Shown here piece after piece: positions 15,722-20,668 of a DNA stretch of 64,000 nucleotides (position 1 is its first letter; the number at the start of each line of letters is the position of its first letter). The DNA is from Labilithrix sp. (lineage in GTDB: Bacteria; Myxococcota_A; Polyangia; Polyangiales; Polyangiaceae). The notes beneath the pieces were generated by a model, which was not told the origin of the DNA, did not search any database, and saw nothing but the letters and a program-made list of their open reading frames with translations. The stretch covers positions 19,667 through 83,666 of the forward strand of contig JBGAFW010000028.1 in assembly GCA_044227045.1 (NCBI GenBank). The letters are read 5' to 3'. Made by a program: the position numbers and the translations under genes.

Positions 15722-16660
15722 ATGCGGGTCTCTTCTTCGAGGCCGTCCTTGCCGCGAGGCGTGGTCGGCGTCGTCGCTGCGATCAGCCTCGGCTGCGGCG
15801 CCCCTTCCGCGCCGGTGGCGCCACGCGCGAGCAGCGGCGTCGAGATGCCCGCGAAGGATCGCGACGATCCGTTCTGGAGCGATCCGGACGCGAAGCCGCT
15901 CATCACGACGTTGCCCGTCACCGGCCGCCTGCACGTCGCGCTCGTGCGCGTGCTCGGCGAAGAGACCTACGGCATCGTCAAGAGCATGCCGATGCAGACG
16001 GCGCACGTCGTGCCGCTCGTGGCGTTCCTCGACGCGAACCCGTCGCGCTTCGGCGCGGGCGACTATCTCACCGTCACGAACATCCGCGGCGAGCAGCTCT
16101 ATCTCCGGCGCGACGAGCTTCGCAAGCATGCGCCCGTGATCGTGATCGGCATCGACGATCAGCGAAACCTCGTTCGCCTCGCGACGACGTACCAGCTTCG
16201 TCGCGAATACACGTGGCGAGTGACCGCGCCCGAGCCGCCGCCCGCGATGACACGGCCCATCGGCGCGTTTCTGTTCTTTCCGAACGGCGTCGACGACGAA
16301 GACACCACGACCGCGAGCTTCACGCTCACGCCATCGAGCTTTCGACTCACCGTCCGCGATCCTCTCGCGCCGATTCGAGCCGCGTCGATCTCGTCCTCGC
16401 TTCTCCTCGCGCTGACCGGCGGTGACGGTTGCCTGAAGTGCCACGCGCTTCGCGGCGCCGGCGCACGCGCGCATCACGTCCGCGCGAACGACGGCAAGCC
16501 ACACGGCGGGTTCGCGCTCGCGCTCGAGGAGTATCCGCGTGACGTCCTCGAGCGCTTCTTGTTCGAGCAAGACAAGGTCGCCGCGAGCTTCGGCGTCGAG
16601 CCGCTTCACGTCGACGGCGCCGTGGCGAAGGAGCTCTTCGCCTTCACCGCTCGGAAGTAG
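15722..16660 (+). CDS. Monohaem c-type cytochrome lipoprotein, 312 aa
   Basis: Lipobox AAISLGC and a single CxxCH (CLKCH). Starts 4 nt after the H1-like gene ends. Confidence 0.65.
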   Translation: MRVSSSRPSLPRGVVGVVAAISLGCGAPSAPVAPRASSGVEMPAKDRDDPFWSDPDAKPLITTLPVTGRLHVALVRVLGEETYGIVKSMPMQTAHVVPLVAFLDANPSRFGAGDYLTVTNIRGEQLYLRRDELRKHAPVIVIGIDDQRNLVRLATTYQLRREYTWRVTAPEPPPAMTRPIGAFLFFPNGVDDEDTTTASFTLTPSSFRLTVRDPLAPIRAASISSSLLLALTGGDGCLKCHALRGAGARAHHVRANDGKPHGGFALALEEYPRDVLERFLFEQDKVAASFGVEPLHVDGAVAKELFAFTARK

Positions 16661-16677
16661 GTCGCTCGCCCTTCCGG

Positions 16678-17316
16678 TTACTGGAGGCGAATCTTGCCCT
16701 GCGTCCCGCCGTGGCAGGTGCCGCCCGCCTGGCACGCCCCGTCGGTCGCTTGCAGCGGGCCGTTCATCGGGGCCTCTTTGTTGTCCTTGCTTCGAAGCGT
16801 GACGTGCGCGCCGGCCGGCATCACGCCGCCGAGGAGCCAGAAGTAGCCATCCTTGTCGCTCTTCACCGGACCGAGCTTCGCGGTGCCGTCGCCAAGGACC
16901 ACGATGCAATCTGCCGCGGCGACGGGGGCCTTTCCGTCGGGGTCGTAGACGCGCCCGCCGAACGTGAAGGCCTTCGTCGAGGCTGCGCCTCCGGACTTGT
17001 GGCACGACAGGCAGTCGAGCGTGGCGGCGGCCTCGGGGTTCGGCATCCCCTTCGCGGCGTGCGCGGCCTCGAGCGTGGTGGTCGCCGGGTTCGCGGTGGC
17101 GCTGTAGGGCGCTCCGAAGACTCCTCCGCCAGACGATGTCGTCCCGGTCGACGCACCTTCGCCTGGCAGCTTTCGGCCGAGAATTCCGCCCGGATCGCCA
17201 AAATTCGGATCGGGCTCGGCGCACGAGAGCGCGGCGGACGCCCCGAGGGTCACGAGCAAGGCCGCAAAACCCCACGTGAGGTTGGGTGAGAAAAAAAATC
17301 GAGGGCGAAGTGACAT
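16678..17316 (-). CDS. Small c-type cytochrome lipoprotein (CLSCH), 212 aa; paralog of 19482..20111
   Basis: The tracked ORF extends to 17523, but the first plausible start is the ATG at 17316 (MSLRPRFFFSPNLTWGFAALLVTLGASAALSC, a signal plus lipobox). Carries CLSCH followed by GG.AS.K.F..GG.VY, and a C-terminal GTCHGG. Confidence 0.7.
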   Translation of the reverse strand: MSLRPRFFFSPNLTWGFAALLVTLGASAALSCAEPDPNFGDPGGILGRKLPGEGASTGTTSSGGGVFGAPYSATANPATTTLEAAHAAKGMPNPEAAATLDCLSCHKSGGAASTKAFTFGGRVYDPDGKAPVAAADCIVVLGDGTAKLGPVKSDKDGYFWLLGGVMPAGAHVTLRSKDNKEAPMNGPLQATDGACQAGGTCHGGTQGKIRLQ

Positions 17317-17462
17317 TTGTCGATCGTTTGAGGTGGCTCCGGTGACGAGCCTTCTAGTCATGTTAGTCACCGCGACCCCACAAACCCGTCCAGAGAAAAT
17401 CATGCCTCCTCGCTCACGCATGCGCAAAGCACACAGCGTGGCTTCTTCGCGGTATCGTTCCT

Positions 17463-19477: not shown

Positions 19478-19481
19478 CGAG

Positions 19482-20111
19482 ATGAGCCAACACGGCCACC
19501 GACGGAGCGGCACGTCAGCGCAGCGAGGCACCTCGAGGGCGTTTGGGCTCCTCCGCCCGCTCCTCGTCGCCGGCAAGCTCGCGCTCCTCGTCACGCTCTC
19601 GATTTCGGGCGGCTGCACCGATCCCGTGCGCGATGCCCAGATCCAAGCGCTCGGCGACGAGACCGGGCCGATCGGCCCTGATCACCGCCCTGGCCAGCCC
19701 TGCGTGCTCTGCCATTCTGCCGGCGGGCCTGCGTCGAACAAGCCGTTCGCGCTCGCGGGCACCGTCTACAAGAACGCGACCGACGACACCGGCGCAAAGG
19801 ACATCACGGTTCAATTCGTCGACGCGCGCGGCCAAGGCCCCTTCCAGCTGCCGCTGCCCACGAGCGAGAGCGGCAACTTCTACGTGCCGCTCGAAGACTG
19901 GCCAAAGCTCGCCTTTCCAGTACGCGTCGCGCTCTACACCGATCCCAACAAGGCGCCGGTGCAGACGATGAAGAGCCTCATCGGACGCGAAGGCTCCTGC
20001 AACTACTGCCATCGTCCGAACGTCGTCCCCGAGGCCGGCGGAAAGCTGAGCAAGGAAGACGCGAACGACGCGCGCGACTCGGTCGGCCAGATCTACGTGG
20101 GGGGCACATGA
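19482..20111 (+). CDS. Dihaem c-type cytochrome lipoprotein (CVLCH, CNYCH), 209 aa; paralog of 16678..17316
   Basis: The ATG at 19482 sits 4 nt after the barrel gene's stop. Lipobox LSISGGC. Shares the CxxCH-x-GGpAS.K.F..aGtVY module with the upstream paralog. Confidence 0.7.
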   Translation: MSQHGHRRSGTSAQRGTSRAFGLLRPLLVAGKLALLVTLSISGGCTDPVRDAQIQALGDETGPIGPDHRPGQPCVLCHSAGGPASNKPFALAGTVYKNATDDTGAKDITVQFVDARGQGPFQLPLPTSESGNFYVPLEDWPKLAFPVRVALYTDPNKAPVQTMKSLIGREGSCNYCHRPNVVPEAGGKLSKEDANDARDSVGQIYVGGT

Positions 20112-20668
20112 GCCTCAGGAAGCTCGCCCTCTCGCTCGGGACCATCTCGCTGATCGGCCTCATCGTGTCGTCGTCCGCGACGACGACGGCGTGCGCGCCC
20201 CCCACGTCGGCGGTGAGCGACAACCCCGAGCTCCCCGACAGCAAGTCGTTCATCAACAACAGCGTGTCGAAGTTCATGGAGCGTCGCTGCGGGAGCCTCG
20301 ACTGTCATGGGCAGCGTGGTCGACCGCTTCGCATCTACTCCGAGTGGGGCCTCCGCCTCGAGCCTGGCCAGGACGGCCAGCACGACAAAGGCCCGACGAC
20401 CGACAAGGAGAAGCTCGAGAACTACTACGCCGTCGTCGGCCTCGAGCCCGAGAACCTCGCCAAGTGCTTCGCGCAGGACACCGGCGGAGATTTCACGACG
20501 TTTCAGCTTTTGAAGAAGCCGCTCAGCATCGAGAACGGCGGCATTCGCCACAAGGGCGGCCCGGTGCTCGGCCAGAACCAGAACGATCGCGGCTGGAAAT
20601 GCCTCTACGGGTGGGCCTGCGGACAAGACTTCAGCAAAGACGACTGCGAAGCCGCGTCGACCCTCTGA
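20108..20668 (+). CDS. Lipoprotein, 186 aa, with a Cys-rich non-canonical possible haem site (CGSLDCHG)
   Basis: ATGA start/stop overlap with the preceding cytochrome gene. Lipobox TTTAC. Confidence 0.6.
   Translation: MSLRKLALSLGTISLIGLIVSSSATTTACAPPTSAVSDNPELPDSKSFINNSVSKFMERRCGSLDCHGQRGRPLRIYSEWGLRLEPGQDGQHDKGPTTDKEKLENYYAVVGLEPENLAKCFAQDTGGDFTTFQLLKKPLSIENGGIRHKGGPVLGQNQNDRGWKCLYGWACGQDFSKDDCEAASTL

Follow-up and report, generated by a model that had tools for sequence, protein, structure and literature searches.

A DUF3570 outer-membrane barrel and two small cytochrome-like lipoproteins: a conserved candidate redox module in the envelope of Myxococcota

A 64-kb stretch of the genome of a Labilithrix species (64,000 nucleotides of contig JBGAFW010000028.1, called the window here, to which all positions refer) contains a gene for an outer-membrane beta-barrel of the DUF3570 family, followed by genes for two small lipoproteins with haem-attachment motifs. 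A gene for a third such lipoprotein diverges from the barrel gene. We refer to the barrel as C, to the two lipoproteins that follow it as D and E, and to the divergent one as B. C-D-E is an old, conserved unit, and the module probably represents an undescribed candidate electron-transfer device in the cell envelope. Judged from the protein sequences, it is best read as a cytochrome-partnered variant of the DUF3570 extracytosolic redox system. The probability that C-D-E, with B, is a conserved envelope redox module of Myxococcota that is built on a DUF3570 barrel and works by the mechanism proposed below is put at about 0.5. The window has a G+C content of 67%, and its nearest relatives are assemblies of Labilithrix, Polyangiaceae and other Myxococcota.

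The genes at the locus are as follows.

15722-16660, + strand: gene A, lipoprotein of 312 amino acids with a lipobox and a CLKCH motif; adjoins and converges on B
16678-17316, - strand: gene B, lipoprotein of 212 amino acids, paralogue of D; divergent from C
17561 (TTG start, 638 amino acids) or 17573 (ATG start, 634 amino acids) to 19477, + strand: gene C, DUF3570 outer-membrane barrel
19482-20111, + strand: gene D, lipoprotein of 209 amino acids, putative dihaem c-type cytochrome
20108-20668, + strand: gene E, lipoprotein of 186 amino acids with one C-x4-CH motif

Between 16678 and 20668, B is thus read on the minus strand, and C, D and E follow divergently on the plus strand. The stop codon of C is separated from the start codon of D by a 4-nucleotide gap (TAG cgag ATG), and the stop of D overlaps the start of E in ATGA. 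Both junctions were read directly, and they uphold the translational coupling of D and E to the barrel gene that the initial annotation of this stretch had described. The chance rate of CxxCH in the coding open reading frames of the window is 3.7e-6 per residue, which gives about 0.003 expected occurrences in the 733 amino acids of A, B and D. Because four are found there, in addition to CX5CH in B and CX4CH in E, the density of haem-type motifs is not due to chance.

C matches the Pfam DUF3570 profile (PF12094) with 89.1 bits against a cut-off of 25 (E 3.6e-25). The match covers residues 326-587 of C and positions 104-374 of the 427 in the profile. Homologues of C are 53-99% identical to it, and PF12094 is found in all 120 that were listed. 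An AlphaFold model made with 121 homologues (pLDDT, the predicted local distance difference test, 86.7) begins with a signal peptide, after which come a helical-repeat bundle (residues 79-166), a small beta-sandwich (168-236) and a helical hairpin (246-265), and it ends in a barrel of 16 strands over residues 273-637. C therefore shows the signal peptide, the even, closed set of strands and the C-terminal aromatic residue of an outer-membrane barrel, the last in the terminal GFDAEF. The barrel of about 634 amino acids ending in GFDAEF that had been annotated initially is confirmed by the 89-bit DUF3570 match and the 16-strand model, and its family is not that of a characterised transporter. 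Foldseek gave 434 PDB matches to the model at E <=1e-3. All 50 that were listed are outer-membrane barrels, none of them of the Mtr type, and the matches are generic (OccD, OmpG, BcsC, AlgE; E ~1e-8, TM-scores 0.25-0.33). A sequence search of the PDB with the barrel, D and E returned no real relatives.

The connections from even to odd strands of C are short (2-8 residues), whereas those from odd to even strands are long. The best-conserved segments of C are three of the long odd-to-even loops, listed here with the N-terminal domain.

17795-18355, + strand: N-terminal periplasmic domain of C, residues ~79-265, delimited by DSSP of the model
Residues 319-334 of C: loop L2
Residues 441-484 of C: loop L5, GENSKLYRFVPMF...
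Residues 546-580 of C: loop L7, YRT.DRE.SP

Strand parity would place L2, L5 and L7 on the barrel face opposite the periplasmic termini, and they may fold into the 16-strand lumen. The N-terminal domain contains the motif EDHPYVKLH and keeps C123, C251, C264, H113 and H119 invariant, with C100 nearly so, in alignments of 22 and 121 sequences. This domain of ~190 amino acids is missing from the short DUF3570 barrels of other Myxococcota. Sister barrels of C give Pfam TPR matches.

The lipoprotein D has a transthyretin-like beta-sandwich fold, flanked by two invariant CxxCH segments.

19701-19715, + strand: first CxxCH of D, CVLCH, after the invariant HRPGQP
19998-20012, + strand: second CxxCH of D, CNYCH, after the invariant M163 and REGS

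Twelve residues of D are invariant in 121 sequences, namely H68, R69, G71, Q72, C74, C77, H78, M163, S172, C173, C176 and H177, and the lipobox cysteine C45 is nearly invariant in the same alignment. When short-type homologues of 36-37% identity are added, C45, the Cys/His sites, H68 and M163 are still invariant. The spare histidine (H68) and methionine (M163) are what two six-coordinate c-type haems would need. None of D, E and B belongs to a family in Pfam or NCBIfam, and the best Pfam cytochrome scores stay below the cut-off (Paired_CXXCH_1 and Cytochrome_CBB3, 14 bits each). D, B and E are nevertheless exported, carry CxxCH or a variant of it and keep a conserved distal ligand, the combination by which a c-type cytochrome is recognised in sequence. 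They are therefore treated here as putative c-type cytochromes. D and E would make two candidate new families of such cytochromes, one of them on a fold never seen with haem. We know of no transthyretin-like or CarboxypepD_reg sandwich with CxxCH.

The motif of E and the two sites of B are these.

20288-20308, + strand: C-x4-CH motif of E, CGSLDCH
16999-17013, - strand: first site of B, CLSCH
16711-16734, - strand: second site of B, C-x5-CH, CQAGGTCH

E is unrelated to B and D in hhalign comparisons, and no relative of it was found in the PDB. The residues C61, C66, H67, G68, H148, C165 and W169 are invariant in six E sequences, homologues of 32-37% identity included, and the same residues are 96% conserved in a family of 27 sequences. 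An assignment of E or of one form of B (B2, below) to PSCyt1-like proteins was dropped: E, B2 and six E homologues have no Pfam match, even at E <=1-5.

B and D are 29% identical in BLASTP (E 6e-6) over a CxxCH...GG.AS.K.F..G.VY core, and profile-profile comparison by hhalign gives a probability of 97.4% (E 1.2e-11). The initial annotation had presented them as paralogues of 212 and 209 amino acids that flank the barrel gene, each with a second, C-terminal Cys/His site. The paralogy is borne out, and the two do lie on either side of the barrel gene, but B stands on the opposite strand and outside the barrel operon. Both have the second site, which in B is C-x5-CH and not CxxCH. In most relatives of B this site is C-x4-CH, a spacing that one B shows at its first site. 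Of the 29 related loci whose upstream DNA is available, 28 have a divergent B gene, which comes in two forms. B1, the form in the window, is of the sandwich type and keeps H155, CxxCH, M253 and C-x4/5-CH (numbering of the 281-amino-acid open reading frame), repeating the pattern of D. B2 is ~170 amino acids long, with a single CxxCH, a conserved histidine and helices in its C-terminal part. The two forms have only the lipoprotein N-terminus in common (hhalign probability 96%).

The residue at position +2 after the lipobox cysteine is Ala, Thr, Ser or Gly in the B, D and E proteins seen, except for the B homologue of L001, a Labilithrix metagenome-assembled genome (MAG), which has Lys there (7693-8211, - strand; CKDPE). 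In lipoproteins of Myxococcus xanthus, Lys at +2 is an inner-membrane retention signal.

The initial annotation had also placed a monohaem CLKCH lipoprotein, A, immediately upstream. It is present and adjacent, as annotated, and it converges on B. No homologue of it was found in ~30 related loci by tblastn and phmmer, and its slot elsewhere holds a beta-helix protein, a kinase or nothing. A was therefore ruled out as a member of the module and is regarded as lineage-specific.

Synteny was followed in genomes and in metagenomes. One genome per GTDB species was scanned with the barrel alignment as query, which gave 27 loci, all from Myxococcota except one MAG labelled Acidobacteriota. These and L001-L003 make up a set of 30 related genome or assembly loci. 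Metagenome contigs were scanned for D, with at least 452 relatives found and 80 loci examined. D and E follow C in 27 of 27 related genome or assembly loci with downstream DNA. Among the 64 metagenome loci with enough DNA, a barrel lies upstream of D in 61: directly upstream in 59, and with a gene for a TlpA-like thioredoxin between barrel and D in two (L083, L113). In two more, the contig ends just past an upstream gene for thioredoxin (L069) or ApbE (L093, Pfam E 4e-44), and one locus (L105) has no barrel within 1.5 kb of D. E is directly downstream of D in 69 of 72 loci, and one more has the order C-E-D (L058), so that E stands beside D in 70 of 72. Some metagenome gene calls read through the barrel into D or E; their barrels are 44-52% identical to that of the window.

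The pair of D and E also stands behind barrels only ~30% identical to that of the window, in Sandaracinaceae, Kofleriaceae and similar groups. A distant search was made with P0361, a short barrel from Sandaracinaceae that is 31% identical to the barrel domain of the window. In three such short-barrel loci, L031, L032 and L033 (the last from Kofleriaceae), the operon consists of DUF4266, DUF3570, a gene of 164-185 amino acids and a gene of ~160 amino acids. The D homologues of these loci (hmmsearch E 2e-25 to 8e-29) have H.PG..C..CH and REGSC..CH, and the E homologues (E 3e-23 to 2.5e-32) have C-x4-CHG.

D and E thus coexist with canonical DUF3570 partners in some lineages. By hidden Markov model (HMM) search, DUF4266 is present in ~17 metagenome loci, in L026 and in L031-L033, and there is no match in the window or in L001-L025. 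TlpA-like thioredoxins occur only in L069, L083, L105 and L113, and neither thioredoxin nor DsbD genes are found nearby in the window or in loci of the window type. The window-type lineage has lost or moved DUF4266 and has gained the N-terminal barrel domain and B. L026, the most divergent genome locus, encodes at 8409-12809 a B-like Cys-rich lipoprotein (CADANCH), DUF4266, a long barrel, D and E, an intermediate architecture. In one metagenomic sub-lineage, ApbE or a TlpA/AhpC-type thioredoxin lies beside D (L093:1-781, - strand; L069:157-747, + strand; L083:5192-5851, - strand; L113:922-1902, - strand). The cytochrome-like pair is thereby physically tied to the flavinylation machinery.

Among barrel families, only DUF3570 has been shown to receive flavin from ApbE (Meheust et al., eLife 2021, PMC8238504). 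In the DUF3570 protein of Chlorobium luteolum, a member of another phylum, the cognate ApbE attaches flavin mononucleotide (FMN) covalently at two [S/T]GA[S/T] motifs. Covalent flavinylation, in a context of extracytosolic electron transfer, is the only experimental datum on DUF3570. In its clusters, DUF3570 is usually accompanied by ApbE, a thioredoxin-like protein and the CXC lipoprotein DUF4266, frequently also by DsbD, and the same paper describes no cytochromes among these partners (all PMC8238504). This connection to flavin changes the most likely mechanism of the module relative to the initial annotation. The barrel of the window has a pair of motifs of this kind.

18506-18550, + strand: pair of degenerate ApbE-type motifs in tandem, D316-MVTAAS-P-D324-LVSTAS330, located where strand 3 ends and in loop L2

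In 121 sequences, D316, A321, S322, D324 and S330 do not vary, and the pattern Dxx[ST]AAS-x-Dxx[ST]xA[ST] is seen in all 38 of the D/E-associated metagenome barrels where the region was found. The model has pLDDT <50 at residues 323-330. The Pfam DUF3570 alignment starts at the second motif in two independent members, which is consistent with an assignment of the pair to the modified positions. The ApbE consensus is D-x-x-[ST]-G-A-[ST], and a change of G to A in another substrate keeps ~50% of flavinylation (PMC12052999). By analogy, the degenerate motif would be compatible with residual ApbE activity. The motif was located in 100 representatives, of which just 2 have a glycine there, and the Gly-less branch around the window barrel comprises 1,179 cluster representatives at E <=1e-3. 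No canonical ApbE-linked DUF3570 was found by tblastn against plasmids, and only the Gly-less branch appeared in the top 150 representatives. Likewise, the homologue search with P0361 turned up no ApbE-linked cluster; it turned up DUF4266-C-D-E operons instead. The ApbE family PF02424 is absent from the gene lists of L001-L003 and L031-L033, and the supplements of PMC8238504 contain no PF12094 or Myxococc* entries.

We propose the following mechanism. D would carry two haems, for which His68 and Met163 would serve as distal ligands, and E would carry one haem on C-x4-CH with His148 as the distal ligand. D, E and B would be c-type cytochromes attached to the outer membrane at its inner leaflet, where they would dock on the barrel itself or on its N-terminal domain and exchange electrons with the barrel. 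Ser322 and Ser330 of the barrel would carry FMN, which an ApbE from another part of the genome would have attached. L2, L5 and L7 would lie in the lumen, and the FMN there would pass electrons between the haems on the periplasmic side and the surface of the cell. The source of these electrons would be a periplasmic cytochrome pool, perhaps an octahaem lipoprotein encoded in the window (below), and not the thiol route of DsbD and thioredoxin. The module would thus be the cytochrome-fed counterpart of the thiol-fed canonical cluster, in keeping with the observation of Meheust et al. that flavin and cytochrome modules are interchanged (PMC8238504).

Several points weigh against this proposal. Haem and flavin in C, D, E and B are predicted from sequence only. 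No solved cytochrome relative of the D fold was found, and C-x4-CH in E and C-x5-CH in B are unusual haem sites, with variable spacing in B. The tandem motifs of the barrel do not match the strict [S/T]GA[S/T], Gly being replaced by Ala in DMVTAAS and by Thr in DLVSTAS, with Asp, Ala and the acceptor Ser kept. Their correspondence to the two published flavinylation motifs of the C. luteolum protein (ABB24424.1) is putative. A phmmer search with one ApbE query found no ApbE in the 64 kb of the window or within 10 kb on either side of 30 window-type loci. Strand parity is the sole basis for deciding whether L2 lies in the lumen or outside, and a 16-strand lumen filled with loops might leave no room for a redox relay. 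Finally, all the loci come from one phylum, and part of the wider synteny may reflect relatedness.

Among the other explanations, the one that survives best confines redox chemistry to the periplasm, and we consider it unlikely. The barrel would be a membrane-anchored flavoprotein or scaffold in a chain from DsbD through thioredoxin and DUF4266 to DUF3570, and the cytochromes would supply or remove electrons for repair, maturation or detoxification. The canonical partners of DUF3570 are indeed periplasmic thiol-redox proteins (PMC8238504). In some lineages, D and E are accompanied by DUF4266 and TlpA-like thioredoxins, and four conserved cysteines, three of them invariant, lie in the large periplasmic domain of the window barrel. 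However, the best-conserved barrel segments, the flavin-type motif included, are those assigned to the face opposite the periplasmic termini, an unexpected place for a reaction confined to the periplasm, and the window-type loci have no DUF4266, thioredoxin or DsbD nearby.

A substrate channel, for example for a metal chelate, would give the barrel a different role, with the cytochromes reducing or oxidising the cargo in the periplasm, as in reductive iron assimilation. Flavinylation clusters have been linked to iron reduction and assimilation, and 25 DUF3570 clusters contain the iron transporter VIT1 (PMC8238504). The best Foldseek matches of C are likewise substrate-specific channels and TonB-dependent receptors. 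These matches are generic, however, as their TM-scores of 0.25-0.33 indicate, and no gene for an iron transporter, TonB, ExbBD or a siderophore is conserved beside the module in the loci examined, which makes the channel improbable.

It is also rather doubtful that the Cys/His motifs are redox disulfides or Fe, Zn or Cu sites, which would make D, E and B thiol or metal proteins like DUF4266. This explanation draws on the Cys chemistry of the canonical partners (PMC8238504), on the C-x4-C spacing in E, on the C-x4-C or C-x5-C spacing of the second site of B and the C-x4-CH at the first site of one B, and on the D fold, which matches no known cytochrome. Against it, every Cys pair is directly followed by an invariant His, and the sites of D are strict CxxCH in 121 of 121 aligned relatives and are kept in the short-barrel homologues. 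One invariant His and one Met are spare as distal ligands for two haems, an arrangement that recurs in B. Furthermore, the proteins are exported, and the genome clearly makes c-type cytochromes, as its octahaem gene indicates.

A role of the module as a redox or envelope sensor for the flanking Ser/Thr kinases is still less credible. A STAND-type kinase adjoins B, and in the Labilithrix clade E is followed by a second kinase, in some loci with a ROK gene in between. In the Sandaracinaceae locus L031, a Ser/Thr-kinase-like N-terminus follows E and an ECF (extracytoplasmic function) sigma/FecR pair lies upstream. Ser/Thr kinases are very abundant in myxobacterial genomes, so their adjacency is weak evidence, and they are absent from L032, L033 and most of the metagenome loci examined. 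The conserved core is C-D-E only. Least of all do we expect a polysaccharide-export barrel with helical repeats (as in BcsC, PgaA and AlgE) and incidental cytochromes, an idea already disfavoured: BcsC (TPR), AlgE and a polysaccharide secretin are among the Foldseek matches, the N-terminal domain resembles helical repeats and sister barrels match TPR, but the sequence family is DUF3570, the TM-scores are ~0.3, no glycosyltransferase or synthase genes are conserved nearby, and D and E remain coupled to barrels with and without the N-terminal domain.

The candidate redox module can be compared with three known systems. The closest is the cluster of DUF3570, ApbE, DUF4266 and a thioredoxin-like protein, with or without DsbD (PMC8238504), which has the same barrel family, PF12094, and small lipoprotein partners in one operon. 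The tandem D-x-x-[ST]-x-A-[ST] pair also appears alike, its correspondence being inferred. In the module described here, however, the partners are two to three lipoproteins with haem motifs, which are absent from PMC8238504, and the window-type loci have no adjacent ApbE, thioredoxin, DUF4266 or DsbD. Gly is lost from both motifs, and the window barrel carries its extra ~190-amino-acid periplasmic N-terminal domain. No description of DUF3570-cytochrome clusters was found in the literature searched.

MtrCAB, PioAB/MtoAB and the Geobacter Pcc conduits likewise combine an outer-membrane barrel with exported c-type cytochrome-like genes, some of them for lipoproteins, in one operon. In these conduits, a barrel of ~26 strands sheathes a periplasmic cytochrome with 8-10 haems. 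By comparison, the barrel of the window has 16 strands, and its operon partners carry one or two haem motifs on non-cytochrome folds. The operon contains no multihaem protein, the octahaem gene being 8 kb away on the other strand. The module therefore resembles a porin-cytochrome system in logic and not in ancestry. Of the porin-cytochrome-like module that had been annotated initially, the general idea survives: because the barrel belongs to no characterised transporter family and its cytochrome-like neighbours D and E are conserved with it across related loci, a redox module of a barrel and small cytochrome-like lipoproteins is a fair reading. A kinship with Mtr, Pio or Pcc is not supported. 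The third comparison is with Cyc2 of iron oxidisers, an outer-membrane redox device in which a monohaem cytochrome is fused to the N-terminus of a 16-strand barrel. Cyc2 is alike in its small barrel and few haems, whereas the present module has separate lipoproteins, a DUF3570 barrel and flavin-type motifs. Only tentatively, and as an unlikely outcome, do we suggest a third outer-membrane electron-transfer architecture, apart from Mtr and Cyc2, in which a 16-strand DUF3570 barrel with covalent FMN at the degenerate ApbE sites of its lumen-folded loops is fed from the periplasm by two new families of small lipoprotein cytochromes, one of them a dihaem protein of transthyretin fold.

Around the module, the window contains several further features.

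7901-9763, - strand: octahaem c-type cytochrome lipoprotein with 8 CxxCH; Pfam Paired_CXXCH_1, C7, C554 and c3
9803-13828, - strand: STAND-type Ser/Thr kinase of 1341 amino acids, AAA_16 and TPR; octahaem gene directly downstream
17472-17515, + strand: conserved non-coding block TGG-N6-GATCCACCA, then a GC-rich inverted repeat (CCCCCATCATGGGGG here)

Most loci of the Labilithrix clade keep the pair of kinase and octahaem genes close to the module, and in both L001 and L011, B joins this pair in an unbroken row on a single strand. The octahaem gene is absent from the short-barrel loci. The octahaem lipoprotein is a possible periplasmic partner of the module, though the link is unproven. In the Labilithrix clade, the octahaem cytochrome, the STAND-type kinase, a hydrolase, a protein of 296 amino acids, the ROK kinase and the second kinase form a syntenic block. 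Taking this wider block (octahaem gene, two kinases, hydrolase, ROK, DPBB) as the module was considered and not adopted, because it is confined to a clade of Labilithrix level whose members are closely related.

In at least 13 loci, the GATCCACCA block precedes the barrel gene by 45-90 nucleotides, and the sequence of the inverted repeat varies by locus. As evidence for a structured RNA, the RNAalifold consensus of the block is weak, with paired bases that are invariant. Rfam has no match for the block, and comparison by eye with the sigma-54 and ECF-type promoter consensus gave no convincing fit. Its role may be that of a promoter, operator or leader element. Promoter, terminator and Rfam scans of 14-22 kb returned nothing. 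A gene resembling ROK-family or polyphosphate-glucose phosphotransferases (20695-21471, + strand) begins 26 nucleotides after E, as in many related loci. There is no terminator-like site between the two, and the ROK gene may be co-transcribed with E.

The 296-amino-acid protein (14828-15718, + strand) is rich in Lys and Ala in its N-terminal half, which resembles histone H1, and has a conserved domain at the C-terminus (...WVHL.Y.DGFASYALVPDDRAFACFPLNR). Its gene stands just upstream of the module in most related loci, and its sole Pfam match is a weak one to MPAB_Lcp_cat, below the cut-off. Two further genes lie farther away. A protein of 715 amino acids (30984-33131, - strand) matches Pfam MVP_shoulder (E 9e-27) and Vault_3, by which it is a predicted bacterial relative of the eukaryotic major vault protein. 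An open reading frame that runs off the end of the window (62686-64000, + strand) carries CEECH and CAHCH and is a dihaem candidate.

The arrangement of C with D and E points to a position of the barrel between a haem pool and something that lies on the outer membrane or beyond it. With a 16-strand barrel and lipoproteins of ~180 amino acids, the module is a compact candidate for outer-membrane electron transfer. If haems and flavins should be absent, it would still be a conserved envelope complex, of much less general interest. To our knowledge, aerobic soil myxobacteria, which are predators, are not known for extracellular electron transfer and do not appear in its literature. If the module is a third architecture of outer-membrane electron transfer, D and E would be unrecognised core parts of the DUF3570 systems of Myxococcota, in aerobic soil bacteria. 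DUF3570, a widespread barrel family, gains a concrete set of partners in D and E, two unannotated families with invariant haem-attachment motifs.

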